From the NCBI GenBank assembly GCA_964446625.1, contig CAYUPH010000001.1, forward strand, positions 70,283 to 134,282: a DNA stretch of 64,000 bases. Reading direction: 5' to 3'. How positions within the stretch are numbered: the stretch's first letter is position 1; every line of letters begins with the position of its first letter. Both the position numbers and the translations under genes were made by a program. This document shows positions 15,529 to 62,712 of this stretch, one piece after another. Below the pieces are notes generated by a model. That model had not been told where the DNA came from and searched no databases. It was given only the letters and a program-made list of their open reading frames with translations. This DNA is from an uncultured Candidatus Saccharibacteria bacterium. GTDB taxonomy: Bacteria > Patescibacteriota > Minisyncoccia > Phycocordibacterales > CAIRYW01.

Positions 15529-15592
15529 TTTTATGTGAGACATCCTAGCATCTTTTTTACGCTGAGGCAAATTTCTTTGATATAATTTCACT

Positions 15593-16982: not shown

Positions 16983-17001
16983 GTAATAAAATATATCATA
17001 A

Positions 17002-17048
17002 GTAATAAAATCAAAAATGGGTCGCGCCGGTCCGAAGACCTGCGCGAC
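17002..17048 (-). terminator. GC-rich intrinsic terminator ending the GC-rich island gene
   Basis: On the minus strand, GGGTCGCGCAGGTCTTCGGACCGGCGCGACCC is followed by ATTTTTGATTTTATT. Confidence 0.65.
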
Positions 17049-17056
17049 CCATCGAG

Positions 17057-18142: not shown

Positions 18143-18375
18143 AATAGCAAAAGTGTGTCGAAGAACAAAATGCCGTAGGTTACGGCAGGAGGTTTTGGTA
18201 CGCAACGGCGCCCTAGCTCTCACAATTCTTCTAGCTTCCAAGCTAGTTGAACTTTCTTTCCGCAACACGGTTGAAACTTTTATATTATAACATAGTTTAT
18301 ATAAAAATCAAGTACGATTATATTAGTGATTTTCAGTCTATAAAATATCTTAAATATTGTGCTATGCTTTTATTT

Positions 18376-20598
18376 ATGGATGAAAGCTACAATTCACAAA
18401 AAATAGAACAAAAAGTTTTAGAATTATGGAATACTGCCAACTTCTTCAATCAAACTCCTAGTAATTCAAAACCAAATATTGGACTCTTCCTGACTCCTCC
18501 AAACGCCAGTGGAGCCATGCATACGGGAAATGCTTTAATGATTGCTATTCAAGACATAATTGCTCGATATTATCGCTCGCAAGGTAGCCCAACAGTTTGG
18601 ATTCCAGGCACAGACCATGGTGGCTATGAAACAGAAATAACTTTCGAAAAAGAATTTGAAAAACAAGGTTTTAAAAAAGACACTTTTTCAAAAAGAGAAA
18701 TTTTTAACAAGATTCATGATTTTGTTCACAGTAATAACAAACTTATTTATAACCAAATAAAGAGATTGGGTGCAAGCGTAGATTGGACAAAGGTTCGTTT
18801 TACAATGGATGATGATTTTTCTAAAAAAACCCAAGATGTTTTTAAGAAAATGGTTTCTGAAAACCTCATATCAAAGAAAAATGTAATGAATCATTTTTGT
18901 CCTGTCTGTTCCACAACACTTTCTGATATAGAACTAAAAGAGCAAAAAGGCGCAAATCAATATTTTATTAAATTCGATTTGATGGATTCAGAAAACGAAC
19001 AAGTCACTTTACTAGTAAAAAGGCCTGAATTTCTTTTTTCTGTCTCAAAAGTACTCGTTCACCCAAGTGATTCTATACACTCCTATTTAATTGGAAAAAA
19101 ACTTAGGAACCCACTTACAAAAGAGGAGATTCAAGTTATAGAAAGTGAGAGAAAGCATGATCCAGATAACACCTCACCTCTCACGCCTTTTTGTGACTCA
19201 TTCGTGAAGTATGACTACGAATACGCGCTTATGCGAAACATTCCTGTTTTTGGAAAGAATTTAATTGACCTAAAAGGTAAAATGAATTTTAGGCACATTG
19301 GAGATAGTACCCAAATTGCCAGAGAAAAAGATTTAAGTATCTTAAAAGCGGAAGGAAGATTAGTAGATACTATCTTTTCAGAGAACGAAAATATTTTTGT
19401 GTGTAAAAAAGGTCACGAAACGGAAACTTACTTAACCATGACATGGATTTTAGACCTAGATCATCCAAATCGCTCCTTAAAAAAAGAAGCTCTTTTGGCA
19501 TTAGAAGAAAACCCTCTCAATGTGGTGCCTAGCTGGAGAAAGAGAGAGATTATAAAATATATAGATTTAATGCGCGCTTGGCCAATCGCTCGTCAAAATG
19601 TATGGGGGATCTCTATCCCTGTTTGGTACGATATATCTTCTCCCTCAGATTTTGAAGTTTGGTTTGAGGATAAAAACAGAGAAAAACACAATGGTAATCT
19701 TGAAGAGTTACTGCGTAAGTATTCTCTTTCCGAAATCTCAGAAGGTCTGGAGAAAATTTATACTTCTAAAGAGAATAATTGGGTTTTTGAAAAAGAAAAC
19801 GGAAAAGAATACTTACCAGAAACAGATGTTTTTGACACATGGTTTTCTTCAGTTTGGTGGGGAATTTTTGTTTTCGAAAATATTTCTTCGTTTACAAAAG
19901 ATGACTTTTACCCTGCCCAAACTACTGTAACTGGAAGCGATTTAATTAGATTGTCTATTTCCAGAAAAATTGTACTCGGTTACTACCTTACAAGGAAGAT
20001 TCCGTTTAGCAATATTTGCTTTAACCCAATCATCAATGGTCCTGATGGAAACAAAATGAGCAAGAGTTATGGAAATGTCATTCCTCTTGAATCTTACCTA
20101 GATAAATACGGCACTGATATTACCCGTCTTTCCCTTGTATCATATACACGTGAAGGTAAGGATTTTAGTATCGAGCTTGAAACTCTCCAAAACTACAGTA
20201 GGTTCATGGATATTCTATGGAAAATGGGTAAAATAGCTGATATTGCAAAGAAATTTGCGCCAAACTTTAATAAAGCAATTTGTGTAGATAAATATTGCAA
20301 AAAGGTTATGGAAGATACTGCAGCTCTCGAGGAAAATGTGGGGAATAAAATAAAAAGTTTCAATTTAGCATATGCCCAAGAACTGGTGACTGGTTTTGTG
20401 TTGGATTTAGAAGAGTTTGCTAATTCTATTCAGACAAGTTCCACAAAGGAAGAATATCTATCGGTTTTTAAGTATGTGTTTGAAAAATATTTATTCATTC
20501 TTCATCCCTTCGCCCCTTTTGTAACTGAATATATCTATAATTCTATATATACGAAAGAAACACCACTTGCTTTACAAGCGAAAGTGGAAGCTATTTAG
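18376..20598 (+). CDS. valS: Class I aminoacyl-tRNA synthetase, most likely valine--tRNA ligase (short form)
   Basis: PPNASGAMHTGNAL (HIGH-region variant most similar to the ValRS PPNVTGSLHMGHAL) and KMSKS (KMSKSYGNV). Start uncertain (18364 or 18376); the track N-terminus from 18247 is spurious. Confidence 0.65.
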   Translation: MDESYNSQKIEQKVLELWNTANFFNQTPSNSKPNIGLFLTPPNASGAMHTGNALMIAIQDIIARYYRSQGSPTVWIPGTDHGGYETEITFEKEFEKQGFKKDTFSKREIFNKIHDFVHSNNKLIYNQIKRLGASVDWTKVRFTMDDDFSKKTQDVFKKMVSENLISKKNVMNHFCPVCSTTLSDIELKEQKGANQYFIKFDLMDSENEQVTLLVKRPEFLFSVSKVLVHPSDSIHSYLIGKKLRNPLTKEEIQVIESERKHDPDNTSPLTPFCDSFVKYDYEYALMRNIPVFGKNLIDLKGKMNFRHIGDSTQIAREKDLSILKAEGRLVDTIFSENENIFVCKKGHETETYLTMTWILDLDHPNRSLKKEALLALEENPLNVVPSWRKREIIKYIDLMRAWPIARQNVWGISIPVWYDISSPSDFEVWFEDKNREKHNGNLEELLRKYSLSEISEGLEKIYTSKENNWVFEKENGKEYLPETDVFDTWFSSVWWGIFVFENISSFTKDDFYPAQTTVTGSDLIRLSISRKIVLGYYLTRKIPFSNICFNPIINGPDGNKMSKSYGNVIPLESYLDKYGTDITRLSLVSYTREGKDFSIELETLQNYSRFMDILWKMGKIADIAKKFAPNFNKAICVDKYCKKVMEDTAALEENVGNKIKSFNLAYAQELVTGFVLDLEEFANSIQTSSTKEEYLSVFKYVFEKYLFILHPFAPFVTEYIYNSIYTKETPLALQAKVEAI

Positions 20599-21890
20599 TT
20601 TCTTCTATCTTCATATAAAGCAAGAACTGAAAGATACGCATATAACATATGACTAGGAATATAATGCACCTTCTTGTAAGTCGCTGGCCCAAATGAAAGC
20701 CCTTCTACATCAAAATCAAAAATCGGACCTGCTCCATCACTTCTATATTCAGGCATTAAAAAGCTGTACTCCTGCTTTGATTCATGTCTTCTTCTTAAGA
20801 CTTCGGCACAGATTATTAGGGTCTTAAGAAAGTAAATCTCCCCCGCGGGCCGTCTTAGATCATTCATCACCGAATTTCTTGATTCGATTATTCTTCTATA
20901 TATATTAGACCTTTTTAGACCTCTTATATACCCCAGATCAATTTCTATATTACTAATTTCTTTTTCTATATTTTCTTTTTCTTTTTCCAGTTCTTTTCTA
21001 TTTTCTTGGAGAGCTCTATACTCAGACCCTAATTCTGTTGAAATAGCAAAATCAATTGAACTCAAATCAAATTCTCTATAGTACTGAAATGAATCAGTCC
21101 TCCTTAATGCGGCAACAAAAGTAAGGTTTTCACCTAGCATGCCCCCAACAACTTTTGAATCAATATTAATCTCACCCTTATATCCACCAAGAATCTTTCT
21201 AATATTATCTACAACAATTGCTTTTGCCTCTTCAAAGACTTTTCTACTCTCTTCTGCGTTATGGAAAAGCTCGGTATCAATTTTATCAGTTTGAAGTCTT
21301 TTGCTTTTAATTTCTGAAGTACAAAACTTTTCTTTTTCACCTGATGATAATCGACTTTGAAACTCATCTGCCTTTGTAAATAGAGACCCAAGCTTTTCTG
21401 CACTAATTGTATTTACATTTTCATGAGACGGCTTCTCTTTAATTTTTGCCAACTGATTTACCAAAAAGCATGCCGTTGCAAGATAATCTGATGGTTTAAT
21501 ATTTTGATCATCATATTCTGGAGAATCAAGAAATCCACCTTTCATCATCCAATTTTCAAAATATTTTATCGCAATCGAAACAATTGTTTGTTCTTTTTCA
21601 TTTAAATCCTCACCAGTCTCCGATCGTGTAACAAAGTTTCGAAGCAGATTACCCAAAGGGACCAATTCGCCAGGAAAAGCTTCGTCATTTTTTTTAAGAA
21701 AGTTAACAAAGGCGTCTACCCTCTCGACTGTCAATTCTTCAGAAAATAATTCCCCTACTTCCTCTTTAAGTGTATTCACCCCACCAGACAGATCTTCTAC
21801 AAAATGTCTCACAACCTTTAACCTTTCTTCTTTAGGAAGTTCATCTTTTGCAGCAATCAAAAAATCTTTAATATCTCGTTTTTCAAACAT
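20595..21890 (-). CDS. Hypothetical protein (431 aa), no recognisable domain
   Basis: Long ORF, AT-rich, in 4-nt overlap with the valS end. Confidence 0.5.
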   Translation of the reverse strand: MFEKRDIKDFLIAAKDELPKEERLKVVRHFVEDLSGGVNTLKEEVGELFSEELTVERVDAFVNFLKKNDEAFPGELVPLGNLLRNFVTRSETGEDLNEKEQTIVSIAIKYFENWMMKGGFLDSPEYDDQNIKPSDYLATACFLVNQLAKIKEKPSHENVNTISAEKLGSLFTKADEFQSRLSSGEKEKFCTSEIKSKRLQTDKIDTELFHNAEESRKVFEEAKAIVVDNIRKILGGYKGEINIDSKVVGGMLGENLTFVAALRRTDSFQYYREFDLSSIDFAISTELGSEYRALQENRKELEKEKENIEKEISNIEIDLGYIRGLKRSNIYRRIIESRNSVMNDLRRPAGEIYFLKTLIICAEVLRRRHESKQEYSFLMPEYRSDGAGPIFDFDVEGLSFGPATYKKVHYIPSHMLYAYLSVLALYEDRRN

Positions 21891-21921
21891 AAAAGGAATT
21901 ATATCATTCCTCTATACTATT

Positions 21922-22668
21922 TTATATTTTAACGGCTTCCACGAGCATAAAAAGTGGAATCTCTTTTCGAGCTTTGTCTTCAGCACTCTGCCTTGGGCCC
22001 TTCTGACTCTTTCGGTCTGAAATCCACTCTTCAAGTTTTGTCACCGCAAAACCTGCCTTAGACAAACTTTTTACATAACTTTGTAGTGGTCTATGAAAAG
22101 AAATTGTTTGAGCGCTTCCCTTCTTTCCTGGATTCATCACAATATCAAAAGTCCTTTCTGACATATAAGTCGCTACTTTTCGGTATTGCTTTCCTGTTTC
22201 TGCATCGAATCCCCAGTCGCTTTCTTTTGGAATTCTGAAAGCTGGGTGATTAAGGACAAACACAAACCTCCCTTTGTCTTTTAAGACGCGAGCAACCTCA
22301 GAAATAACCTTTTGCATGTCCTTTATATTTTGTAAGGCTAGTACACAGACAGCAACATCAAATTTCCCTGGAGGAAAAGGTAACTTTTCGGCTGATGAAA
22401 CTTTAAATAGTCCATCTTTGTTCCCCATTTTAGCAATTTCTACTAGCTCTGGAGATATATCTACCCCTGTTACACGTGAACCAGCTTTCAAAAAAGCAGC
22501 AGAAAAGAATCCTTGTCCGCATGCAAGGTCTAGTATTTCTTTACCCTTATCTGGTGAAACTACCCTAAGAAGATTAGGTAGAATCACAGTATTTTGATAC
22601 GAATTATCTCCTTCTACTAAGGTATCGTACCAAGTTGCTACCTTTCCCCAAGAAGTTGTTTTTTTCAC
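21922..22668 (-). CDS. Class I SAM-dependent methyltransferase
   Basis: Motif I ILDLACGQGFFS and the DVAVCVLALQN region (Methyltransf_11/25-like). Confidence 0.8.
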   Translation of the reverse strand: MKKTTSWGKVATWYDTLVEGDNSYQNTVILPNLLRVVSPDKGKEILDLACGQGFFSAAFLKAGSRVTGVDISPELVEIAKMGNKDGLFKVSSAEKLPFPPGKFDVAVCVLALQNIKDMQKVISEVARVLKDKGRFVFVLNHPAFRIPKESDWGFDAETGKQYRKVATYMSERTFDIVMNPGKKGSAQTISFHRPLQSYVKSLSKAGFAVTKLEEWISDRKSQKGPRQSAEDKARKEIPLFMLVEAVKI

Positions 22669-22748
22669 GTGAAACTATTGTAATTAGTAAATATATCCCT
22701 AAGGACTGTTACCACCGTAGCAAATGCAGATTTGCTACTGTATCCTGG

Positions 22749-22820
22749 TCGGAGTACTGGGATTCGAACCCAGACTGAACGCTCCCAAAGCGTTTATGCT
22801 AGCCGTTACACCATACTCCG
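22749..22820 (-). tRNA. tRNA-Pro (anticodon TGG); CCA appears genomically encoded (extends to 22746)
   Basis: Acceptor CGGAGTA/TACTCCG, anticodon stem AACGC/GCGTT, loop TTTGGGA, T-arm CTGGG-TTCGAAT-CCCAG, then ACCA. Confidence 0.85.
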
Positions 22821-22896
22821 ATTATTTTATTTTACCACTTCTAACGCACTCGTTTTGAACACAAATAAATATAACACAAAGAATACAAAAACAAAA

Positions 22897-23286
22897 TTAT
22901 TCAAAGATTATATTGGGTATATAAGTCACTTTTGCTTTTTTTGTGTTTTCATCTACAAGCACTGAACATACATCGATCTGCCAATCCTCCTTAACCTTGT
23001 ACTCGATCAGGAACATTTGAATAACTCTAGAAAGCTTAAGAAACTTTTCACGAGAAACATTCTCCTCTGGTCTAAACCAATCGCTTTCACGTGAAACCCT
23101 CACTAAGTTGTTACACGCAAATGTTTTTACCTCTACAAAATGCCATTTTCTTCCTTTCCGAGCAACTATATCTATTTCACCCGATTTTCTTAGAAAGTTT
23201 CTCGTGAAAACATTATACCCATGTTTCTTAAGAAACATAGTAGCAATATCTTCTCCTAATATTCCTATTTCGTTATGTTTTGCCAT
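22897..23286 (-). CDS. YraN/UPF0102 family endonuclease-like protein
   Basis: GEIDIVA...HFVEVK motifs. Start chosen at MAKHNEIG (23286). Confidence 0.7.
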   Translation of the reverse strand: MAKHNEIGILGEDIATMFLKKHGYNVFTRNFLRKSGEIDIVARKGRKWHFVEVKTFACNNLVRVSRESDWFRPEENVSREKFLKLSRVIQMFLIEYKVKEDWQIDVCSVLVDENTKKAKVTYIPNIIFE

Positions 23287-23621
23287 TTTAAATAGTAAAT
23301 AGTGTTTCTTGTGAAAACTTTTATGGCTAAAGTATAGCACAAACACTTAAGTGTTTCTTATGAAACATATTATTTAACTCTTTTTTACTTAAAATACTCT
23401 GTCTTTTAAAAAAAGACTTGTATTATATAGGTTTTATAGAAAATAGTGCTTTTAGACTTTACAAAAAGACAAAAGGACAGTAGGGGAGTTGTACACTTAT
23501 CCCCTTAGTTATCCACAGTTTTATAGAAAATCTATATTTTATGAGTGGAAAAGTTGGGATATTTGTCTTATATATTAGGGACAAATTAAGAAAAAATGCA
23601 TTAAAAGACATTACTTAATAA

Positions 23622-23648
23622 AAAACAGGGCTCTGACCCTGTTTTTTC
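23622..23648. terminator. Bidirectional intrinsic terminator (GGGTCAGAGCCC core) ending element B
   Basis: AAAACAGGGCTCTGACCCTGTTTTTT. Confidence 0.75.
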
Positions 23649-23795
23649 TTGTGCAGGTAAGGAGAATCGGCCACGGTTTATGGCTAAATTACTCGCGAAA
23701 CTCTAATTGTAGCTCATAACCCCGGCCCGGACTCAGCGACAAGCACTCGCCCTCCTCGTCTTGTGTACCGCCTCCGTCTTTCGATTCTTCTTACC
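23641..23795 (-). ncRNA. Candidate structured ncRNA (element B) downstream of tRNA-Gly(GCC); homolog of element A
   Basis: A 20-nt exact direct copy of the tRNA 3' end plus flank (TTGTGCAGGTAAGGAGAATCG) is at 23641-23660. An inverted copy (CGATTCTTCTTACCT) is at 23776-23795. It shares the box GAATCGAAAGACGGAGGCG with element A. The termini pair over 15 bp with 1 mismatch. Confidence 0.45.
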
Positions 23796-23844
23796 TAAAT
23801 TCAAAATATAGGCGCAAATTATACATAATTTGCTTTTTATTTTG

Positions 23845-23915
23845 TGCAGGTAAGGAGAATCGAACTCCTGTCTCATCCTTGGCAAGGACGTGTCCTACCA
23901 CTAAACGATACCTGC
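23845..23915 (-). tRNA. tRNA-Gly (anticodon GCC), no encoded CCA
   Basis: Acceptor GCAGGTA/TACCTGC, anticodon stem CGTCC/GGATG, loop TTGCCAA, T-arm AGGAG-TTCGATT-CTCCT. Confidence 0.88.
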
Positions 23916-23960
23916 TTGATTAACAATTAGTATTCTAGACTATTTGAGGGAAGATGACAA

Positions 23961-23992
23961 ACAAAAAACCTGCGGAAGTGCAGGTTTTTTGA
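23961..23992. terminator. Bidirectional intrinsic terminator downstream of tRNA-Arg
   Basis: AAAAAA-CCTGC-ggaagt-GCAGG-TTTTTT. Confidence 0.7.
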
Positions 23993-24137
23993 GCGAATAT
24001 GTGGTCCCAAATAATTTCCTCACCCATGTTCGGAAATTTTTGTGACCTCGGCTCGCTTGTTTATACTGAAGTAAAAACATAGCTCCGCCTTGCACAAGTC
24101 TCGTAAAATCCAAAGCAGTTTGGATTTTACTCGCTAG

Positions 24138-24209
24138 TGCACCCGTCAGGACTCGAACCTGAAATAACGGTTCCGAAGACCGGTGTGATATCCATTTCAC
24201 TACGGGTGC
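24138..24209 (-). tRNA. tRNA-Arg (anticodon TCG), no encoded CCA
   Basis: Acceptor GCACCCG/CGGGTGC, D-stem GTGA/TCAC, anticodon loop CTTCGGA, T-arm TCAGG-TTCGAGT-CCTGA. One C/T mismatch at the top of the anticodon stem. Confidence 0.8.
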
Positions 24210-49944: not shown

Positions 49945-50445
49945 ATGCAGTACCAAGTTCCACAATTTATTGAAGTCGAGGATAAAATCTTTGGACCCCT
50001 TACCTTTAAACAATTTGCATATCTTGTAGGGGGCGGGGGGATTTCTTTTCTTGTTCACAGATTCATTGGTTTCCCTTTTTCAATACTTATTGCTCTCCCA
50101 ACTCTTGCTTTTGCACTCGCTATGGCATTTTACAGAGTGAACAATAAGCCTTTTATTGAAATTTTTGAAGCAGCAGTCAAATATACCCTTGGGAGCAAGC
50201 TCTATGTTTGGAAAAAACAAGAAAAAAGGGTAGCCCCCGAGGCAGCTGTTCAAATGCCTGGATCTAGTGTGTATGTTCCAAAACTCTCTGAGTCGAAACT
50301 TCGGGAACTTACATGGAACCTCGACATTAATGAGACGATTTATTCAAATGAAGAAAGACGAGAAAGGGATGAAAAGACTGGAAGGGAAGGACCTCTGAAT
50401 GCATTTAAAGGTCTTTCCTACGATTTAAATGAAAATATGAGATAA
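49945..50445 (+). CDS. PrgI/VirB3-like small membrane protein
   Basis: MQYQVPQFIEVEDKIFGPLTFKQFAYL followed by two TM helices then YRVNNKPFIEIFEAAVKY. Compare the PrgI pattern VP...K...LT.RQ...TM...Y.RDGLPFE. Lies immediately upstream of VirB4, as in Gram-positive T4SS. Confidence 0.55.
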   Translation: MQYQVPQFIEVEDKIFGPLTFKQFAYLVGGGGISFLVHRFIGFPFSILIALPTLAFALAMAFYRVNNKPFIEIFEAAVKYTLGSKLYVWKKQEKRVAPEAAVQMPGSSVYVPKLSESKLRELTWNLDINETIYSNEERRERDEKTGREGPLNAFKGLSYDLNENMR

Positions 50446-50452
50446 TAACTTT

Positions 50453-51091
50453 ATGAGTGATTCAAGAAGTTCTCAAGACTTTGTTCCAATAAAAGAAATT
50501 CGTGACGGAATAGTTGTCCTTAAAACAGGAGGGCTTCGTGGTGTTGTTATGACCTCTTCAATAAACTTTGCCCTCAAAAGTGCAGACGAACAAAACGCAA
50601 TTATCTACCAATTTCAAAACTTTCTAAACTCCCTTAACTTTTCAATTCAGATTCAAACACAATCCAGGCGACTTGATATCCGTCCATATATTGCGCTCCT
50701 CGAAAATGTTGAAAGGGAACAGAAAAATGATCTGCTCCGAATCCAAACAAGGGAGTATATCCAATTTATCAAGACATTCACCGACACAGTAAACATTATG
50801 ACGAAAACTTTCTTTGTTGTGGTGGAGTACACCCCAGCTATCCTTCAGACAAAAAAAGGGATTTCAGGTATGTTCTCAAAGAGTAATGACAAAACAAAAA
50901 AGGAGAGCTTTGAAGAAAACAGAACACAGCTTCTCCAGAGAATGGAAGTAGTTATCCAAGGACTTACACGAATGGGACTACGCAGTGTTCCACTTGGCAC
51001 CGAAGAACTTGTAGAGCTATATTACAAAATTATGAATCCAGGGGAAACAGAAAAACCAATTAATGTTGAAGCCGCAATGGCACTTAACTAA
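50453..51091 (+). CDS. VirB4-family N-terminal domain protein (separate ORF)
   Basis: DFVPIKEIRDGIVVLKTGGLRGVVMTSSINFALKSADEQNAIIYQFQNFLNSL resembles the N-terminus of Gram-positive VirB4 homologs. Ends 1 nt before the ATPase ORF. Confidence 0.55.
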   Translation: MSDSRSSQDFVPIKEIRDGIVVLKTGGLRGVVMTSSINFALKSADEQNAIIYQFQNFLNSLNFSIQIQTQSRRLDIRPYIALLENVEREQKNDLLRIQTREYIQFIKTFTDTVNIMTKTFFVVVEYTPAILQTKKGISGMFSKSNDKTKKESFEENRTQLLQRMEVVIQGLTRMGLRSVPLGTEELVELYYKIMNPGETEKPINVEAAMALN

Positions 51092-51092
51092 C

Positions 51093-52904
51093 ATGTCATT
51101 ACTTGATAAACTTTTAGGAAAAAAACAAGAAGAAGCCCAGCCTGTAACAGCTATCTTGCCTGAGGAAATTTACCAGGCAGGAGTCCTTGAGCTCAAAGAT
51201 GTCATTGCACCATCAGCCCTGAAGATTACACCTCGTGAAATTAACCTTGGTGACAAGATCGCTCGAACATTTTTTGTGATCTCGTACCCTCGCTTTCTTA
51301 CAGAAAGTTGGTTTGCTCCGATTGTAAACCTCGACAAAATTTTTGATGTTTCAGTATTCATTCACCCAATTGATACAGCACAAATCCTAAGACAATTTCA
51401 AAAAAAGGTTGCCGAAGTGCAAAGCCAGATTTCGGAAAGGGAATCCAAGGGACTTGTAAGGGACCCGATGCTCGACACCGCGTACCAAGACCTCGAAACA
51501 CTGCGAGACCAACTCCAGCAGGCACAAGAGAGACTTTTTGAAGTAGGGCTCTATATTACAATCTACTCAAACACAACAGAGGAGCTTGATAAAATCGAAT
51601 CTGAACTAAAATCAATCCTTGAATCAAAACTTGTTTACTTAAAACCAGCGCTCTTCCAACAAGAACAAGGTTTTAGAAGTGTCATGCCAATCGCAACAGA
51701 TGAGCTCGAAGTACACTCAAAATTAAACTCTTCTCCTCTTTCAAGCATCTTTCCTTTTATTTCATTTGACCTTACGAGTGATAAGGGAATACTTTTTGGT
51801 ATTAACAGACACAACTCCTCTCTAATTCTCTTTGACAGATTCTCACTAGAAAACTATAACTCAGTTACATTTGCGAAAGCCGGAGCAGGAAAAAGTTATT
51901 GTACAAAACTTGAAATACTCCGTTCACTTATGTTTGATACTGATGTGATTGTTATTGACCCAGAGAGGGAATACGAATATATGGCAGAATCAACGGGAGG
52001 TCGCTACTTTAATATCTCGCTTACTTCAGAGCACCATATCAACCCATTTGATCTTCCTACCCCTCGAGAAGACGAATCTCCAGCGGATGTTCTTCGATCG
52101 CACATTATTAACCTAGTAGGACTCTTCCGAATTATGCTTGGCGGACTCACACCTGAGGAAGATGCAATCATCGACCGCGCGATTACTGAAACCTATGCCC
52201 TCAAAGATATTTCTCCATCAAGTAAGTTTGACACTATCGAACCACCTCTTATGTCTGACTTTGAGCTCGTTCTTGCAGGTATGGAAGGAGGAGGATCGCT
52301 CGTTCAGAGACTTGAGAAATATACAAAGGGAACGTGGGCAGGATTCATTAACAGACCAACAAACGTTGATATCAATAAAAAGTTCGTAGTTTTCTCTCTT
52401 CGAGACATGGAAGATGAACTAAAGCCTGTTGCGATGTACATTGTGACTCATTACATCTGGAATGCTATTAGACAAAAACTAAAGAAGCGTCTTCTCGTGA
52501 TCGATGAGGCCTGGTGGATGATGAAAAGTGAGGATACTGCTTCCTTCCTTCTTGGACTTGCAAAACGAGGACGAAAATATTATCTTGCTCTTTCAACAAT
52601 TACACAAGACGTCGAAGACTTTCTTAAATCCCCTTATGGGCTTCCTATTATTACAAACTCATCTATCCAAATACTCCTTAAACAGTCGCCTTCTTCAATC
52701 GACATAATTCAACGTACTTTTAATCTCACTGATGAAGAAAAGTTTCTGCTTCTTGAGTCAGATGTAGGAGAGGGAATCTTTTTTGCAGGACTAAAACACG
52801 TTGCGATTAAAATTATTGCTTCCTATACCGAGGATCAAATCATTACATCAAATCCTGAGCAAGTTCTCGCAATCAGAGAGGCAAAAAGAAATAGCGAAAT
52901 ATAA
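51093..52904 (+). CDS. VirB4/TrbE/CagE-family type IV secretion ATPase (ATPase portion)
   Basis: Walker A FAKAGAGKSYCT, Walker B and DEAW motif LLVIDEAWWMM, family-typical length and context. Confidence 0.85.
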   Translation: MSLLDKLLGKKQEEAQPVTAILPEEIYQAGVLELKDVIAPSALKITPREINLGDKIARTFFVISYPRFLTESWFAPIVNLDKIFDVSVFIHPIDTAQILRQFQKKVAEVQSQISERESKGLVRDPMLDTAYQDLETLRDQLQQAQERLFEVGLYITIYSNTTEELDKIESELKSILESKLVYLKPALFQQEQGFRSVMPIATDELEVHSKLNSSPLSSIFPFISFDLTSDKGILFGINRHNSSLILFDRFSLENYNSVTFAKAGAGKSYCTKLEILRSLMFDTDVIVIDPEREYEYMAESTGGRYFNISLTSEHHINPFDLPTPREDESPADVLRSHIINLVGLFRIMLGGLTPEEDAIIDRAITETYALKDISPSSKFDTIEPPLMSDFELVLAGMEGGGSLVQRLEKYTKGTWAGFINRPTNVDINKKFVVFSLRDMEDELKPVAMYIVTHYIWNAIRQKLKKRLLVIDEAWWMMKSEDTASFLLGLAKRGRKYYLALSTITQDVEDFLKSPYGLPIITNSSIQILLKQSPSSIDIIQRTFNLTDEEKFLLLESDVGEGIFFAGLKHVAIKIIASYTEDQIITSNPEQVLAIREAKRNSEI

Positions 52905-52906
52905 AT

Positions 52907-53881
52907 ATGATTGCGTTTCTATGGAACTGGGTGGTGTGTCTTTTTGTTCCTTTTGCAGGAACAATAACTATTTTTGCTGAAGGAATTGTGGGAAAAGATA
53001 TAAATGGCAGAAAGATAAAAAGTCATTTGTTCCATATTCTTCTAGCATTTGTCTCTCTAGGGATTGATCTGCTCCTTCTTGGATACGGAGGAAATATCGT
53101 CCGGGCAATAGTTAAGATTTTAGGTCGTCCGTTTGCAAAAATAGGAGAAAAAACTGTTACTACAGCAGTTCAAACTTCTGTTAAAAGCACTTCACGTGTG
53201 GGAAGTCGTGCAACTGGGCGAATAACGGAAAGAAAACTTGCTCAAGAAAGCGAAAAAGTTGCTCAGGAAGCTATCGAATCTACAACTAGGCAAATCCAAA
53301 ATGAAAGTGAACATGGTTTTAAAGAGTTTAAAAAAAATGAACAAGCCCGAATTTCAGAAAAAGAGAAAATAGATCTCTCTAGTATGAAAGAAAACATTGA
53401 GAAAGCTCGACAAGACAATCTCGATGACTCGAATTCGCAATCAGAATTTGGTACCATATCAGAAGATCTGTTTAGTAGCGCAAAGGAAGAATCTAAATTT
53501 GCATCCAAACTCGAAAAAGCAATAGAAAGAGATCCTTCGCTAAAGAATGTAGCTGCAAAAAAGGTTACGCAAAATATTCCTGAGATGTCGAAAGTATTTG
53601 ATCAAAAAAAGGACCCGAGTAAGAGAGAAAAAATGAAAGAAAAGATCTTGTCACAAGTGCTACAAGAACAAGATGTAAATGTTGCTTTTGAAAAACTTGC
53701 CCAAAAAATTCGACATAACCCGCGCTCTCTAAAAAAACTAGAAATGATGATTTTAAAATTACCCCCTTCAGACCTAGTAAAGAAAGATGACCTAAAAAAA
53801 ATTGTCACATCCTTAATAGAAGGTTCAACTCCGGAGGTTAACACTTCTACAAAAAACACCGAAAACAATGCACGAAAGTGA
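52907..53881 (+). CDS. Membrane protein with coiled-coil cytoplasmic/periplasmic domain (hypothetical T4SS-like component)
   Basis: Two N-terminal TM helices then a charged coiled-coil region; in the operon. Confidence 0.45.
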   Translation: MIAFLWNWVVCLFVPFAGTITIFAEGIVGKDINGRKIKSHLFHILLAFVSLGIDLLLLGYGGNIVRAIVKILGRPFAKIGEKTVTTAVQTSVKSTSRVGSRATGRITERKLAQESEKVAQEAIESTTRQIQNESEHGFKEFKKNEQARISEKEKIDLSSMKENIEKARQDNLDDSNSQSEFGTISEDLFSSAKEESKFASKLEKAIERDPSLKNVAAKKVTQNIPEMSKVFDQKKDPSKREKMKEKILSQVLQEQDVNVAFEKLAQKIRHNPRSLKKLEMMILKLPPSDLVKKDDLKKIVTSLIEGSTPEVNTSTKNTENNARK

Positions 53882-53919
53882 GAGGAAAGTACTTGTACAC
53901 CATGCTATAATATATACCA

Positions 53920-54954
53920 ATGAAAAAGTTTTATTTTTCACTAATTATTATAATATGTTTTATTGCAGCTTTTTTCTCCTTTAAAGCTTTGGGTCAGGGT
54001 ACACTTTCTATACCCGCACAAATTAATGGACTAGAAGAACAAATCTCACTAAAAGTAAGTCCTCAAGTACCTGAACCTGGAAAGCCTGTAGTTCTTACAG
54101 TAAATGCTTATGGAACAGATATATCGAAAGCAAAAATTACATGGAAAACTGATGGAAAGGTAGTATTAGGGCCAGGAGTAGCAACCTCCTTAACCTTAAC
54201 TATGGGCACAATTGGTGAGGCTGTTACTGTAGAAGTGATCGTTGAACCTTTTAATGGACCAGCTGTAAACAAAAAAGTCACCCTCATACCTGGCGAGGTT
54301 GATTTAATCTGGGAGGCAGAGGGATACAATCCACCATTTTATAAGGGGAAGATCTTTTATGGTCCTGAGAAAAATGTAAAAGTGGTTGCAATTCCAAATA
54401 TATATGATACTTCTGGCAAAAAAGTGAACCCTCTAAATCTGGACTTTAAATGGAGTAAAAATAATGAGATAGAAGGCAGCGTCTCTGGTGCTGGAAAAAA
54501 CTACTGGCCTTTTAAAGGGTGGATATTACTCAAGAGTATCGAAGTTGGAGTTACTGTAGGAAGTGAAGGAAAAGTAAGAGGGCAAAGTAGCTTTAACCTA
54601 CCATCTTTCTTTCCAGAGGTAAGAATGTATGAAAATAGTGGAATTTATGGAATTCTTTTTAATAGATCGCTTTTAGGTACATCAGAACTTAAGGATACTG
54701 AACAAACAGTTGAAGTGTACCCATTTAGTTTTGGAATCCAAAACCGCACTGACCCCGCTTTTCGTGTAACTTGGCAGATGAATAGAAAAAATATTTTTTC
54801 AACAGAAGGTAAATCAAAAATTACAGTAAGAAATACTGAGAATGAAAGTGGGGAAGCAGAACTAGGTGTGAAAGCGCAGAATATAAATTACACATTTGAT
54901 GAAAGTGCAGGAAGATTCACACTAAAGTTTAGCAAAAAGGATTTTGAATTTTAA
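53920..54954 (+). CDS. Secreted beta-rich protein (hypothetical)
   Basis: Signal peptide; no domain recognised. Confidence 0.5.
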   Translation: MKKFYFSLIIIICFIAAFFSFKALGQGTLSIPAQINGLEEQISLKVSPQVPEPGKPVVLTVNAYGTDISKAKITWKTDGKVVLGPGVATSLTLTMGTIGEAVTVEVIVEPFNGPAVNKKVTLIPGEVDLIWEAEGYNPPFYKGKIFYGPEKNVKVVAIPNIYDTSGKKVNPLNLDFKWSKNNEIEGSVSGAGKNYWPFKGWILLKSIEVGVTVGSEGKVRGQSSFNLPSFFPEVRMYENSGIYGILFNRSLLGTSELKDTEQTVEVYPFSFGIQNRTDPAFRVTWQMNRKNIFSTEGKSKITVRNTENESGEAELGVKAQNINYTFDESAGRFTLKFSKKDFEF

Positions 54955-55892
54955 TGGATAATATAATTAAAAAGTCCGTAATCATTATTACATTTTTATT
55001 GGTTTTAGTGATTCCTTTTTTTTCACACGCCTATGTCCCCCTTGTCCAAGTAGACGGCCTAACAACGAACCTTGACTCCAATAACCCAAACCTCATCAGT
55101 GAATACTTGCTTGGGCTTTATAAGTTTGGGGTAGGGCTCGCAGCAGCTATTGCTATAGTCCTCATTATTATTGGAGGATTTCAGTATGCCACAACAGACG
55201 CTATCGGAGGGAAGGAGGATGGAAAGGAGAGAATAAGAAATGCTATTGGAGGACTCCTTCTTGCTTTGTTTTCTTTTTTAATTCTTAACACAATTGATCC
55301 AAGACTGACGAGTGTGGATTTTAATGTCGGAGAAGTGGAGGTGGAAACATCCTCGGTTCTTTCTATTGCTATTGGGTTGCGCAGTGATGCAGATATGCAG
55401 TATGCAGGAGACGGGGGAGAGCTTCCTTCTCCAAATATGGACTTTGATGTTGTTAATCATTTAGATTTAAGTTCAAGTGGTACCGCAGGAAACTATCGTA
55501 GCACTTGGTATAATAAAAATGAAAAAGGAGCGGATAAATGGACAATAAAGGGGCAAACCTCTACTGGAATCCCACTAAGATTTGCAGACGCAAACACAGT
55601 TGGTGTTGCTGCAGTTGACCCAAATATTATTCCATACGGAAGCGTTATTTTGGTAGGATCGGGTGCAAATAGAAGAGTGTATGTTGCTGGAGATACAGGG
55701 TCTGCCGTAGTTAATAGAACCGCATCTGGACGAACTGTACCTGTCATAGATTTTTATAGTCAAGGACAGGTAGGTAGAGAATACGATAATTTCAGTGTCA
55801 TTCCTTATACTGGAGGAAACTTCCAGTCTCTATCGGGAGAAAACAAAGCAGCTGTTATAGAGAATATTCGTTCAACATATTTAAGTCACTAA
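54954..55892 (+). CDS. VirB2/TrbC-like pilin-type N-terminal membrane module fused to a 3D-domain (MltA-like) cell-wall hydrolase domain
   Basis: Signal peptide plus two hydrophobic helices separated by the short loop DAIGGKEDGKERIRN. The C-terminus has AVDPNIIPYGSV...VAGDTGSAV...VIDFY, the three-Asp pattern of 3D domains. Confidence 0.5.
   Translation: MDNIIKKSVIIITFLLVLVIPFFSHAYVPLVQVDGLTTNLDSNNPNLISEYLLGLYKFGVGLAAAIAIVLIIIGGFQYATTDAIGGKEDGKERIRNAIGGLLLALFSFLILNTIDPRLTSVDFNVGEVEVETSSVLSIAIGLRSDADMQYAGDGGELPSPNMDFDVVNHLDLSSSGTAGNYRSTWYNKNEKGADKWTIKGQTSTGIPLRFADANTVGVAAVDPNIIPYGSVILVGSGANRRVYVAGDTGSAVVNRTASGRTVPVIDFYSQGQVGREYDNFSVIPYTGGNFQSLSGENKAAVIENIRSTYLSH
55037..55324 (+). repeat. 288-nt direct repeat, copy 1 (1 mismatch to copy 2 at 55961-56248), encoding the shared pilin-like module
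   Basis: Direct sequence comparison of the two segments. Confidence 0.9.
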
Positions 55893-56770
55893 TGAAAAAG
55901 CAAATATTTAAATTTTTATTTTTTGTCACTTTTTTTCCACTTATTTGCTTCGGCTACACCCCCCTTGTCCAAGTAGACGGCCTAACAACGAACCTTGATT
56001 CCAATAACCCAAACCTCATCAGTGAATACTTGCTTGGGCTTTATAAGTTTGGGGTAGGGCTCGCAGCAGCTATTGCTATAGTCCTCATTATTATTGGAGG
56101 ATTTCAGTATGCCACAACAGACGCTATCGGAGGGAAGGAGGATGGAAAGGAGAGAATAAGAAATGCTATTGGAGGACTCCTTCTTGCTTTGTTTTCTTTT
56201 TTAATTCTTAACACAATTGATCCAAGACTGACGAGTGTGGATTTTAATTTAGGAAACGCTGTTAAGGTTGATACAGATAGTGTGCTCGATATATTGCAAG
56301 ACCCAAACTTTATAGAGGAAGATAATTACTCAATTCCAGGAGTCACACCCGTAGAACCCGCTGGTGCGATTGGAGAAAAAACTAATATACCTGCGGGTAT
56401 TCGAGTTGATAGTCAAGGAAAACAAGTTGATATCACTATGAAATCCAGCTTAGAGCGCCTAAACCAGGAATTAGGAAAAAACAACATCGGATGGGCTGTC
56501 ACAGAGGCTTACCCACCAAGTAGGCAACACAAGGCGCCATGTCACCAAACTGGAACTTGCATTGATGCGAACTTCCGAAGTACTGATGCAAGTCCTGAGA
56601 ACGTAAAGAAATTTCTTCAGAGCGCGAGCACAGCAGGACTTCGAGCGGTCTATGAAGTTCAGTCTGAAAGTGAAAGAACCAGATTTGTAAACGCGGGTGT
56701 TCCAGCGGAAAGCATAGTGAACCTTGGAAGTTGGATCACTGCTCCACACTTTTCTGTTTATAGTAATTAA
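55892..56770 (+). CDS. Paralog of the previous gene: same pilin-like N-terminal module fused to an M15 (VanY/LAS)-like peptidase domain
   Basis: N-terminal about 96 aa identical to the upstream paralog. The C-terminus has CHQTGTCIDANF (H..G..D) and a terminal APHF, resembling LAS metallopeptidase motifs. Confidence 0.45.
   Translation: MKKQIFKFLFFVTFFPLICFGYTPLVQVDGLTTNLDSNNPNLISEYLLGLYKFGVGLAAAIAIVLIIIGGFQYATTDAIGGKEDGKERIRNAIGGLLLALFSFLILNTIDPRLTSVDFNLGNAVKVDTDSVLDILQDPNFIEEDNYSIPGVTPVEPAGAIGEKTNIPAGIRVDSQGKQVDITMKSSLERLNQELGKNNIGWAVTEAYPPSRQHKAPCHQTGTCIDANFRSTDASPENVKKFLQSASTAGLRAVYEVQSESERTRFVNAGVPAESIVNLGSWITAPHFSVYSN
55961..56248 (+). repeat. 288-nt direct repeat, copy 2
   Basis: Direct sequence comparison with 55037-55324. 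Confidence 0.9.
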
Positions 56771-56794
56771 TTATTTTTGAGGTAAAATATAGCT

Positions 56795-58186
56795 ATGCTT
56801 AAGAAAGTAGTTATCGCGCTCGAAATTCTTTTGGTAATTATTCTTCTTTGGGTTGGGTACGCTTTCTTCAAATTTAAAACAAACCCAAAAAATGAAACTT
56901 TTGTTGAAACAGCCAGCAACATTTTTCCTTTTGGTGATTTTGGATCGTCTCCAGATTTAAAACTTGGAAGTGGGGGTGGCGCAGTAGGCGACACGACACC
57001 TTCTCCAGATTCTACATTAGACGGAAACACTACAGATGATCCAAGCCTTAATACCCCTAGCGTAATTCCTAGACTGCGCCAAATTACCACTGTCCCTACA
57101 GCTGGTTCAATCATTGTTCCAAGAGAGAAAGAAATCATTAAAGACGGTAAAAAGACAAAAATTACAGAGTATTTTATTCGTTATACAGACCGTGCCACAG
57201 GACATGTGAGTGAAACTAAAACAGATTCCTTGTCAGTAGAAAAAATTTCTAATACAACTATTCCAAAAGTATATGAGGCTTACTATACATTCGGAGGTGA
57301 CGGATTTCTAGCAAGACTCCTTGATGACGATGGAGAAACTATAAAAACTTACTTTGTTTCTCTCGTAAAAAACACAGGCACTTCAACAGACCCAGCAAAT
57401 ATTCTTTCCCCTAAAGAATCGAGCATCTCATTTCTACCGAACAACCTCAGAGAAGTGTCACTTTCTCCTGACAGACTTTCACTTCTATCCCTTTCATATG
57501 GAGGAAGTGGGGGAGTAATTGAAGCAGGAAGTGTCACAGGAAAAAATAAAAAAACAGTTTATAATGGCGAACTTAGAGAATGGCTCATTGAATGGGTTGA
57601 CGCGGGACGCGCAATTCTTACAACAAAACCTTCTGGATACGTTGTAGGGTATTCTTACTTCCTTAATATGGTAAGTGGAGGATTTGATAAGATTACTGGG
57701 GGAATTTTAGGCCTTACAATACACGCTGCACCAAACACACAATTTATACTCGTTGGAGAAGGTGGAAACACACAAAACCTGTCAGTTTATTCCACGAAGG
57801 ATAGATCGCTGCGAGTAACTGGACTTAAAACACTCCCTGAAAAATGTACTTTTGCAAAAAAAGAAAAAAATACAGCGTATTGTCTTGTTCCTTTCATTCT
57901 TCCAGAAGGTGTATACCCTGACAGTTGGTATAAAGGGGACATCACGTTTTCTGATACCCTTTGGAAAATTAATCTCGAAAACGGTGAAACAAAACTAGTA
58001 GCAAACTTTAGATACCCATACAACCAAGAAATAGATGGAGTAAACCCAGAAGTTGCCTCTAATGATGCGTATATAACGTTTATAAACAAAAAAGATCTTA
58101 CTCTCTGGGGTTACACCATAGAAGAGCAAGTTGCTGCAACTACAACAAAAAGCACCGCTTCTTCTACAGCGGTGCTTCCTCGATAA
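56795..58186 (+). CDS. Membrane-anchored periplasmic/extracellular protein (hypothetical); last gene of the operon
   Basis: N-terminal TM and a 440-aa hydrophilic domain; no motif. Its 3' end overlaps jag convergently by 23 nt. Confidence 0.5.
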   Translation: MLKKVVIALEILLVIILLWVGYAFFKFKTNPKNETFVETASNIFPFGDFGSSPDLKLGSGGGAVGDTTPSPDSTLDGNTTDDPSLNTPSVIPRLRQITTVPTAGSIIVPREKEIIKDGKKTKITEYFIRYTDRATGHVSETKTDSLSVEKISNTTIPKVYEAYYTFGGDGFLARLLDDDGETIKTYFVSLVKNTGTSTDPANILSPKESSISFLPNNLREVSLSPDRLSLLSLSYGGSGGVIEAGSVTGKNKKTVYNGELREWLIEWVDAGRAILTTKPSGYVVGYSYFLNMVSGGFDKITGGILGLTIHAAPNTQFILVGEGGNTQNLSVYSTKDRSLRVTGLKTLPEKCTFAKKEKNTAYCLVPFILPEGVYPDSWYKGDITFSDTLWKINLENGETKLVANFRYPYNQEIDGVNPEVASNDAYITFINKKDLTLWGYTIEEQVAATTTKSTASSTAVLPR

Positions 58187-60039: not shown

Positions 60040-61380
60040 ATGGAAAAAGATTTCTTATGGAAAAAAGTTTTAGGTGAGATGGAAATTATGCTTTCGAAAG
60101 CTAACTTCTCTACATGGTTTAAAGATACTTTTATTTTAAAAATTGATGATGGGGTAGTACACCTTGGAGTACCGAGTGCGTTCGTAAAGGATTGGCTCGC
60201 AAGCAAGTACCATAAATCTATTCTGAAAGCTCTTCGAGACGCTGATGAAGCAATCAGATCCCTTGAATACAACATTGTAAAAGACGAGCAAAGAAGAAAG
60301 GTAGAGGAGAATAATCGAAAACAAGAGTTTTTAGGTAGAGAACTGCCTCTTGGGGACCTTTACATAAACAAAGATGACAACCTAAACCCAAGATATACCT
60401 TTGAAAGTTTTGTTGTGGGCCCCTTCAATGAACTCGCGCATGCCGCGGCGCAAGCTGTTATTAAAAAACCTGCGACATATAACCCTCTTTTCTTTTACGG
60501 AGACACCGGGAGAGGGAAAACCCACCTTATTCAAGCTATTGGAAACCATATAAAGCAAAATTTTCCGGACAAAAAGGTGTTTTATATTCCGTCAGAAAAA
60601 TTCTATCAAGACTGTACTTCATCAATTCAAGAGGGGAAAGTAAACTCTTTTAAGGATAAATATCGAAAATATGATGTTATTATCATGGACGATATCCAGT
60701 TTCTCGCAAAGAAAGAACGAACTCAGGAAGAGCTCTTTCACCTCTTTAACAACTTGTATGAGAGCGGAAAACAAATTGTCTTTTCATCAGACCAGCACCC
60801 AAACTACATGCAAGATATTGAAGATAGGCTCAAATCACGTTTTGTCTCTGGAATGATTGTTGATATTCCTCCTCCAGACTACGAATCGAGAGCTGCGATT
60901 ATAAAAACAAAGCTAAATCAGCGAGGATTTCGCATTAATGATGAAGTAATAGACTTTCTAGCCAGCAATCTAGAAGGGAGCATCAGAGAGCTTGAAGGTG
61001 TACTGAATGCAATTGTTTGCCAAACAGAGCTTAGAGGGAAAGAGCTCGATCTCTCTGAGGTAAAACACCTCATAAAAGACACAGCAAAACCAGTTAAAAA
61101 CATCTCTGTAAAAGATGTGGTGCGTGTAATTGCTAAATTCTACGACATCGACGAAACCGAAATTGTCGACAAAAGCCGAAAGAAAGAAGTTGTAAAGCCT
61201 CGACAAATTGCCATGTATCTCCTTCGAGAAGACTTTAATATCTCGTACCCATCAATAGGACAAAAGCTTGGGGGAAGGGACCATACTACCGTTATTCACT
61301 CATGCGAGAAAATAAAGAACGATATTAAAAATAATAACCAACTAAACCAGGAGCTGACACAAATCAGGTCAATGTTGTAA
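60040..61380 (+). CDS. dnaA: Chromosomal replication initiator DnaA
   Basis: 446 aa with AAA+ Walker A GDTGRGKTHL, Walker B IIMDDIQF and the C-terminal DNA-binding HTH (HTTVIHSCEKI). Confidence 0.95.
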   Translation: MEKDFLWKKVLGEMEIMLSKANFSTWFKDTFILKIDDGVVHLGVPSAFVKDWLASKYHKSILKALRDADEAIRSLEYNIVKDEQRRKVEENNRKQEFLGRELPLGDLYINKDDNLNPRYTFESFVVGPFNELAHAAAQAVIKKPATYNPLFFYGDTGRGKTHLIQAIGNHIKQNFPDKKVFYIPSEKFYQDCTSSIQEGKVNSFKDKYRKYDVIIMDDIQFLAKKERTQEELFHLFNNLYESGKQIVFSSDQHPNYMQDIEDRLKSRFVSGMIVDIPPPDYESRAAIIKTKLNQRGFRINDEVIDFLASNLEGSIRELEGVLNAIVCQTELRGKELDLSEVKHLIKDTAKPVKNISVKDVVRVIAKFYDIDETEIVDKSRKKEVVKPRQIAMYLLREDFNISYPSIGQKLGGRDHTTVIHSCEKIKNDIKNNNQLNQELTQIRSML

Positions 61381-61614
61381 ACACTGTGTAAAACCTGTTG
61401 AAAAGTATCTTATAAACCCTTAAAAATATCTGGAAAACTAGAAAAGAAATCCACAAAAGAAAAGTTATTCACAAAGTGTAAAAAAATCTACCCAACAAAA
61501 CTAAAGCAGGGAGCAGTAAGATAACCTTAAAAAATAACCTTAAATCAAGATTTCCACATATCCACAGAGCTTTATTAATACAATATATTTAATTAATAAA
61601 ATAATAATAAATAC
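61381..61614. promoter_or_regulatory. Probable oriC: DnaA boxes TTATTCACA (61465-61473), ATTTCCACA and ATATCCACA (61550-61566) followed by a 43-nt AT-rich unwinding element (61571-61613)
   Basis: Box matches within 1-2 nt of consensus plus a near-pure AT tract immediately upstream of dnaN. Confidence 0.65.
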
Positions 61615-62712
61615 ATGACAACTGAAATATCGAGAGAGAAGTTCATAGAAGGTATTGGGAAAGCAGAGAAGATTTCTGGGAAGCATGTTTCACTCCCTAT
61701 TCTCTCTAGTGTGCTTATGCAGGTAAAAAAGAATGAGGTTGTTTTTGTCTCTACAAACCTTGATGTTGGTATTGAAGTACAAATCCCAGCAAAAGGAGAA
61801 GATGAGTATTCTTTTGTAATTAAGCCTGAACCCGTGAAGTCTTTCCTACTTGGAGCAAAGGGTCAAAATGTGTCTTTAGAAAAACGAGAAAATGTTCTTG
61901 AGATGAGAGTGGGAGACAATGTTGCTACGGTTAAAATTGAGTCTCCTGAAGAGTTTCCAACAATCCCAAGGGTATCAGAAGGGAAAGAGTGGTTTATTGC
62001 GTCTAAAGACCTTACAAAAGGAATTAAAGCGGTACTCTGGAGTGCTTCAACTTCAACAATAAAGCCTGAGATTGGAAGTGTGTATATTTATCAAAATGAA
62101 GAGGATGTTGTGTTTGTTGCAACAGACTCTTTTCGTCTTGCAGAGAAGAAGATAAAAGCAAAAAAAGCAAAGGATTTTGAACCACTTCTTATTCCGACAA
62201 AAAATGCATCTGAAATAATAAAAATTCTTGATGGGGTGAGCTCGGAAGTGAAAGTTATTTCAAGTAAGAATCAGATCTCATTTGAAGCAGAAGGAACCTA
62301 CCTTACTTCGCGTCTTGTTGATGGAAACTTTCCTGACTACAAGCAAATTATTCCTAAAGAATTTAATACGGAAGCAAGGATCTTAAAGGAAGACTTGTCT
62401 TCTGTTCTCCGAACAGCAGCGGTTTTTTCGGATTCATTTCATCAGGCGACACTTACGTTTATCCCAAAGGATAAGAGTTTGGAGGTGAAAACACGAAGTA
62501 ATGAGGTCGGGGAAAGTGTATGTAAAATAAAAGGTTCACTTGAAGGAAACGTGCTTTCGATGAATTTTAATCACAGGTATTTGGCGGATCCGCTTCAGTC
62601 TATTGAAGGAGAAGGGGTGCTTATAAGTGCTGTTTCAGAAAGTAAACCACTTATTATAAAAAATAGTGGCGGGAGTGATTTTCTTTACTTAGTGATGCCT
62701 ATGAATCGCTAA
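61615..62712 (+). CDS. dnaN: DNA polymerase III beta sliding clamp
   Basis: 365 aa with three-domain clamp architecture and conserved C-terminal LVMPMN. Confidence 0.92.
   Translation: MTTEISREKFIEGIGKAEKISGKHVSLPILSSVLMQVKKNEVVFVSTNLDVGIEVQIPAKGEDEYSFVIKPEPVKSFLLGAKGQNVSLEKRENVLEMRVGDNVATVKIESPEEFPTIPRVSEGKEWFIASKDLTKGIKAVLWSASTSTIKPEIGSVYIYQNEEDVVFVATDSFRLAEKKIKAKKAKDFEPLLIPTKNASEIIKILDGVSSEVKVISSKNQISFEAEGTYLTSRLVDGNFPDYKQIIPKEFNTEARILKEDLSSVLRTAAVFSDSFHQATLTFIPKDKSLEVKTRSNEVGESVCKIKGSLEGNVLSMNFNHRYLADPLQSIEGEGVLISAVSESKPLIIKNSGGSDFLYLVMPMNR

Follow-up and report, generated by a model that had tools for sequence, protein, structure and literature searches.

The VirB4 ATPase of a type IV secretion system (T4SS) appears to be encoded by two adjacent open reading frames (ORFs) in a 64,000-nucleotide stretch of DNA from an uncultured Candidatus Saccharibacteria bacterium (GenBank assembly GCA_964446625.1, contig CAYUPH010000001.1, positions 70,283 to 134,282 of the forward strand; hereafter, the window). 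We consider it highly probable that these are distinct genes, trsD and virB4, both functional and transcribed together, of a chromosomal T4SS of the type characteristic of Patescibacteria, and that together they make up a full-length VirB4 divided at a linker, with TrsD acting in trans. Such a split is the standard, published architecture of these systems; it is already known, and the window adds nothing unusual to it. The original prediction, made from the sequence alone, left four possibilities for the two ORFs, namely, a VirB4 that is genuinely split, its N-terminal part working in trans, a programmed +1 frameshift, a recent inactivating mutation and an assembly indel. The first of these is supported by the complementary coverage of the VirB4 models by the two ORFs and the presence of the split in 77 of 77 relatives, and the other three are refuted by the evidence laid out below. 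The relevant features of the window are the following.

49945-50445, plus strand: PrgI/VirB3-like small membrane protein, 166 amino acids (aa) (Pfam PF12666, E 1.9e-09, 38.4 bits versus a 27-bit cut-off)
50453-51091, plus strand: ORF1 (212 aa), TrsD-like, a separate protein homologous to the N-terminal ~180 residues of VirB4
51089-51095, plus strand: trsD-virB4 junction TAA-c-ATG in the sequence (stop, 1-nucleotide (nt) spacer, start)
51093-52904, plus strand: ORF2, VirB4-family T4SS ATPase, 603 aa plus stop, without the TrsD-equivalent N-terminal region
51873-51896, plus strand: Walker A motif of ORF2, AKAGAGKS, aa 261-268
52497-52517, plus strand: Walker B/DEAW motif of ORF2, VIDEAWW, aa 469-475

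Complementary coverage of VirB4 by the two ORFs

ORF1 had been said to resemble the N-terminal domain of VirB4, and three VirB4 models indeed match it at their N-termini: VirB4_plasma (E 5.6e-11), the 752-position NCBIfam model conju_CD1110 (NF045971), positions 2-118 of which align with aa 8-123 of ORF1 (E 2.6e-07), and TIGR00929 (E 2.5e-06). Like the TrsD/TraD proteins, ORF1 is a stand-alone protein in the range of ~200-230 aa that is homologous to the N-terminal portion of VirB4, and its gene lies between a VirB3-like gene and virB4, immediately ahead of the latter. Precomputed Pfam annotation assigns it to PF26593 (TraC-like); a local Pfam scan yielded no match even at E 10, the PF26593 model probably being missing from the scanned copy. 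When the ORF1 alignment was used for a profile search of PDB sequences, no match at E 10 or better emerged, and the 14 best PDB matches found by Foldseek for an AlphaFold model of ORF1 are all R388 TrwK/VirB4 chains.

The assignment of the ATPase core to ORF2 stands, with sequences that fit both the Walker A (GxxGxGKS/T) and the Walker B (hhhhDE) consensus, the latter within the DEAW motif, and with all catalytic motifs intact; the length originally given, 604 aa, does not, the protein comprising 603 aa. Residues 32-570 of ORF2 align with positions 185-732 of conju_CD1110 (E 2.5e-109, 366.6 bits versus the 325-bit cut-off), and the Pfam P-loop_TraG model is matched as well (E 1.4e-25, 90.3 bits versus 25.8). 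The architecture of ORF2 is not that of a full-length VirB4, the model match beginning at about position 185 of 752. Because ORF1 covers model positions 2-118 and ORF2 begins at ~185, the two ORFs are complementary rather than redundant, and the region absent from ORF2 is, judging by these alignments, the one that ORF1 encodes. Residue 1 of ORF2 aligns to residue 3 of TrsE from the plasmid pSK41 (E 2e-30).

The junction in the window and in close strains

The +1 offset and the 1-nt gap between the two ORFs are as originally described: ORF1 ends with TAA at 51089-51091, base 51092 (c) is the sole spacer, and the ATG of ORF2 starts at 51093, one base out of frame relative to ORF1. Upstream of this ATG, the ORF2 frame, thought to be open back to at least 51063, is open to 51036, 56 nt before the TAA, with an in-frame ATG at 51063, so that a single +1 shift within the overlap would, as predicted, fuse the two ORFs. 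The ATG at 51063 was rejected as the true start of ORF2: alignments with the relatives begin at residue 1 of the protein initiated at 51093, and the upstream frame of the relatives usually closes within a few codons.

The only point in favor of an assembly or sequencing indel at 51060-51095 is the geometry of the 1-nt gap itself. The same geometry is found in two close strains, L081 and L082, represented by independent Logan assemblies of other sequencing runs (SRR32414319 and SRR30862795), the DNA of which diverges from the window at 3-5.5% of positions and the proteins of which are near-identical. The junction in these strains reads TAA-g-ATG, so that stop, spacer length and start are all retained and only the spacer base, c in the window, differs. 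Furthermore, no long homopolymer is present at the junction, the sole run being an A5 at 51051 that codes for the conserved EKP, and ten other species share the 1-nt gap, so there is practically no chance that an indel created this junction.

The same strains bear on the view that a recent frameshift mutation has turned VirB4 into a pseudogene of a decayed system. A split in an essential ATPase is, admittedly, a common signature of pseudogenes, but the codon differences from the close strains are 26 synonymous and 1 non-synonymous in ORF1, and the comparison of ORF2 with L081 gives 99 synonymous and 0 non-synonymous differences. This excess of synonymous differences points to very strong purifying selection on both halves of the divided VirB4. 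Together with the intact catalytic motifs and the identical split point in all 77 species described in the next section, it leaves next to no room for inactivation.

Conservation of the split across relatives

A search with ORF1 over ~5.8 billion proteins returned over 7,800 homologues. The top 120, which were inspected, are all 194-233 aa long, share 63-100% identity with ORF1 and come from metagenome-assembled genomes (MAGs) of Patescibacteria/Paceibacteria. The homologues share an end point, a few residues past a conserved NPG[DE]xEKP motif. In a scan that took a single genome for each GTDB species, at least 561 species had a relative; the best 80 loci were analysed, and the junction counts given here refer to the 77 of them with usable downstream sequence, the ends of ORF1 having been found by scanning from the ORF1 start. 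The comparison of orthologs that had been proposed as a check of the fused or split state gave an unequivocal result: in all 77 loci, VirB4 is split at the same point, ORF1 stopping at 202-220 aa and being followed by a separate ORF2, and no continuous, fused ortholog was found among them. The two genes are paired at every locus with downstream sequence available. Identity across these species is 58-75% for ORF1 and 65-87% for ORF2 (76-87% when loci cut by a contig end are excluded), and the tblastn alignment of ORF2 begins at residue 1 in most of the 77 loci.

In contrast to the split point, the geometry of the junction varies. The trsD-virB4 spacer ranges from -4 to +599 nt, being 9 nt or less in 48 of the 77 loci and exactly 1 nt in 10, and ORF2 lies in the +1 frame relative to ORF1 in 34 loci, in the +2 frame in 25 and in the same frame in 18. 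Frames and gaps so variable make a programmed +1 ribosomal frameshift in the 51036-51091 overlap, which would yield a single full-length VirB4, unworkable. Such a shift could draw on the 56 nt over which the ORF2 frame is open ahead of the TAA and on the existence of fused, full-length relatives, but the required +1 relation is seen in fewer than half of the loci; in 18 of the 77, ORF2 is in frame behind a stop codon; another gene lies between the two ORFs in eight loci; and in many relatives the ORF2 frame shuts 4-8 nt upstream of the trsD stop. ORF2 also possesses a conserved start codon (ATG) and a conserved N-terminus of its own, and the search for slippery or shifty motifs that had been suggested for the overlap revealed neither a slippery X XXY YYZ heptamer nor a CUU-stop type site there, the A5 at 51051 merely encoding EKP. 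We therefore give the frameshift hardly any credence.

The eight relatives with a complete small extra gene exactly between trsD and virB4 deserve separate description. The product of the inserted gene is a four-helix-bundle protein of the 23S rRNA intervening sequence (IVS) family PF05635 (E down to 4e-43), except in L062, where it is a GIY-YIG nuclease, and at least four of the eight inserted genes (those of L004, L006, L009 and L065) are flanked by inverted repeats of 26-33 nt. These repeat-flanked inserts resemble an IVS-like mobile insertion into the operon junction. Because whole extra genes are accommodated in the spacer, the junction must be a true intergenic region. The extra genes are located as follows.

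L004, 4741-5112: extra gene between trsD and virB4
L005, 2154-2525: extra gene between trsD and virB4
L006, 4798-5052: extra gene between trsD and virB4, degraded
L009, 4674-5018: extra gene between trsD and virB4
L015, 4668-5030: extra gene between trsD and virB4
L059, 4351-4752: extra gene between trsD and virB4
L062, 4785-5078: extra gene between trsD and virB4
L065, 4677-5081: extra gene between trsD and virB4

Five relatives with long spacers (L004, at ~4612-4660, L006, L065, L066 and L079) have perfect hairpins of 14-25 nt across the trsD stop codon, the arms of which co-vary with the 3' end of each species' own trsD; in the short-gap loci, chance reverse-complement matches have a median length of 5 nt. 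These hairpins could be terminators, RNase III sites or footprints of an insertion. One of the relatives, L033 (DATGWK010000001.1), is labelled 'Candidatus Nanoarchaeia archaeon', and its trsD-virB4 pair is typically patescibacterial (61% and 81% identity); the contig probably belongs to a MAG into which it was mis-binned, or bears the wrong label.

Fused forms and the position of the break

Clustering of the homologues at 50% identity gave 2,212 representatives with hits at E 1e-3 or better. Among the best 150, which were examined, 106 are 260 aa or shorter, 42 are 261-443 aa long and only two are full-length fusions, that is, 148 of the 150 are not full-length. Six of the 42 representatives of intermediate length were read, and each consists of a TrsD domain and a disordered tail rich in P, A, Q and T. 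In these six proteins (P0173, P0178, P0157, P0226, P0149 and P0142), the tail is a low-complexity C-terminus of 100-230 residues that starts past a conserved YNPEE motif. Tails of this kind are present in many TrsD homologues of more distant lineages.

In the first of the two fusions, P0232 (797 aa), ORF1 matches residues 5-214 and ORF2 residues 225-793, with a linker of ~10 residues; in the second, P0256 (898 aa), the corresponding matches are to residues 13-212 and 321-892, and the linker, of ~108 residues, is disordered and similar to the P/A/Q/T-rich tails of other TrsD homologues. The genomic context of P0232 is the same as in the window, with PrgI upstream and dnaA-dnaN nearby. Because the fused relatives are colinear with ORF1 followed by ORF2, the break in the window can be placed in what appears to be a flexible interdomain linker, and a linker of this sort is the kind of site that tolerates gene fission or fusion.

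The fusions also help to assess the possibility that TrsD is an independent paralogue, derived from a duplicated N-terminal region of VirB4 and endowed with an unrelated role of its own, rather than the missing piece of VirB4. The long disordered tails on many of the homologues would be in keeping with such a history, but ORF2 is devoid of the very region that TrsD matches, so the two are complementary; the fused relatives are exactly colinear; and the invariable adjacency of the pair, described above, likewise speaks against independence. We regard this as a very improbable explanation of ORF1.

Operon and genomic context

From the PrgI gene on, successive genes are spaced by 7, 1 and 2 nt and then overlap by 1 nt, and at several downstream junctions the gap or overlap does not exceed 2 nt; trsD and virB4 are thus embedded in a compact operon and are presumably co-transcribed. 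The TAA-c-ATG sequence is an ordinary junction of such an operon. Because all junctions of the operon are equally tight and the offset varies freely among the relatives, the 1-nt gap and the +1 offset have no meaning of their own and would be an incidental outcome of operon compaction. The PrgI gene, which opens a conserved PrgI-TrsD-VirB4 triplet, is also found upstream in L081 and L082 and in a relative with a fused VirB4, L084. Downstream of virB4, the T4SS cluster continues as follows.

52907-58186, plus strand: T4SS cluster genes, ORFs of 324, 344, 312, 292 and 463 aa, in this order
54954-55892, plus strand: the 312-aa ORF, T4SS_pilin-like (PF18895, below the gathering score) with a 3D domain (27.8 bits versus a cut-off of 23.8)
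55892-56770, plus strand: the 292-aa ORF, T4SS_pilin-like (PF18895), weak, below the gathering score

The products of the 312-aa and 292-aa ORFs might serve the cluster as VirB2-like pilins. The genes dnaA (60040) and dnaN, at 60040-62712 of the window, follow the cluster at a distance of about 2 kb, and this adjacency places the T4SS cluster on the chromosome, beside the replication origin. An origin-proximal position of the T4SS is also seen in L084.

A well-placed Shine-Dalgarno motif is present in none of the 16 window genes checked. In several of the genes checked, a TATAAT sequence lies just 7-10 nt upstream of the start codon; the starts checked include 43854, 46212, 53920 and 60040. 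This pattern suggests that mRNAs in this genome could be leaderless or have very short leaders. Four tRNA genes on the minus strand, at 15458-24209 of the window (Rfam RF00005, 60-76 bits), are unrelated to trsD-virB4.

Proposed roles of TrsD and the short VirB4

Most likely, TrsD supplies in trans the N-terminal subdomain that a full-length VirB4 carries within the same chain. TrsD would then dock the VirB4 ATPase onto the membrane anchor PrgI/VirB3 that is encoded directly upstream, a role that is suggested by the colinearity with full-length VirB4 and by published work, according to which VirB4 is held at the membrane by VirB3, with some VirB3 proteins forming a fusion with the N-terminus of VirB4 (Quinonero-Coronel et al. 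2025, Microb Genom, PMC12102498). ORF2 would be translated from its own ATG at 51093, probably either through re-initiation by ribosomes that terminate at the TAA one base upstream or through another form of Shine-Dalgarno-independent initiation, given that this genome shows no use of Shine-Dalgarno motifs.

Several observations weigh against this interpretation of the pair. The match of ORF1 to the NCBIfam TrsD/TraD model NF041427 (E 1.7e-07) scores 31.2 bits, with a curated cut-off of 200 bits, and hhalign finds weak similarity between the ORF1 family and the one TrsD sequence of pSK41 (E 0.015, probability 2.9%). The Foldseek matches of the ORF1 model are modest (probability up to 0.99, E 4e-3 to 6e-2, TM 0.33-0.47), and the confidence of the model itself is moderate (pLDDT 71.8). 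Besides, the existence of fused forms indicates that the split is not obligatory, and the docking of TrsD to VirB4 and to PrgI is a role that we only infer. Because the hhalign match to pSK41 TrsD is weak, the link to TrsD rests on the match to the NCBIfam hidden Markov model, synteny and the literature, and ORF1 is best described, as far as its sequence goes, as a TrsD-like remote homologue that lies outside the narrow staphylococcal/enterococcal TrsD/TraD subfamily. Judging by the equivalent context and the taxonomy of the relatives, it probably belongs to the Patescibacteria TrsD homologues that Quinonero-Coronel et al. (PMC12102498) define by the CONJScan MPF_FATA TrsD profile.

In our view, TrsD and the short VirB4 correspond to a full-length VirB4 cut at the linker, and this correspondence leads to a testable hypothesis, implicit in the published work, that TrsD is the VirB3-docking module. 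For genome annotation, the implication is that neighboring trsD and short virB4 genes in Patescibacteria should neither be flagged as a frameshifted pseudogene nor merged. A bolder and rather unlikely proposition is that the equivalent split in Patescibacteria and in the pGO1/pSK41 plasmids goes back to a single ancient fission in a common MPF_FATA ancestor, that the proteins of 797-898 aa are secondary re-fusions, and that a free TrsD is functionally important. Should this be the case, TrsD could be, for example, a dissociable adaptor, the stoichiometry or the disordered tail of which would regulate the docking of the VirB4 hexamer onto PrgI/VirB3, in a T4SS shown to be indispensable for epibiotic growth (Wang et al. 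2023, Cell, PMC10633639).

Comparison with known systems

The resemblance of the trsD-virB4 pair to genes with a programmed +1 frameshift, such as prfB, which encodes RF2, is superficial and is limited to the position of the downstream ORF in the +1 frame; here, by contrast, the frame relation is not conserved, shifty sites and internal Shine-Dalgarno motifs are lacking, and ORF2 has a conserved start of its own. The similarity to full-length Gram-positive VirB4 proteins (conju_CD1110, with R388 TrwK as the structural reference) is that ORF1 and ORF2 cover the whole model colinearly; the difference is that the window encodes two polypeptides, with the break at the linker after NPG[DE]xEKP.

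Another parallel is found in the staphylococcal conjugative plasmid pSK41 (compared as NC_005024), which belongs to the pGO1/pSK41 group (MPF_FATA, pGO1 subclass). Here, a small gene in the TrsC/VirB3 position is followed by trsD (227 aa, annotated TrsD/TraD), a 14-nt gap and the gene for TrsE/VirB4 (672 aa), in the same order as in the window. The split position is equivalent as well, since ORF2 aligns with TrsE from the first residues. The two systems differ in that the sequence similarity of ORF1 to TrsD is very remote and in that pSK41 is conjugative and encodes a relaxase as well as a coupling protein, whereas the locus in the window is chromosomal and close to the origin.

The closest likeness is to the T4SS of Patescibacteria with TrsD and VirB4. 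In this group, TrsD, a protein of no assigned function with remote homology to the N-terminal part of VirB4, is the most abundant T4SS component and is usually encoded beside virB4, with 1,664 of the 2,272 homologues adjoining that gene; it is essential in S. epibionticum ML1, and the T4SS is often located near the origin of replication (PMC12102498). The same study does not spell out that the accompanying VirB4 is without the TrsD-equivalent region. The locus described here shares with these systems the PrgI-TrsD-VirB4 order, the chromosomal location near dnaA-dnaN and the pilin-like genes within the cluster, and comes from the same phylum-level group, its closest relatives being Patescibacteria/Paceibacteria MAGs. 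We see no substantive difference between them, so that the window provides one more instance of the patescibacterial T4SS.

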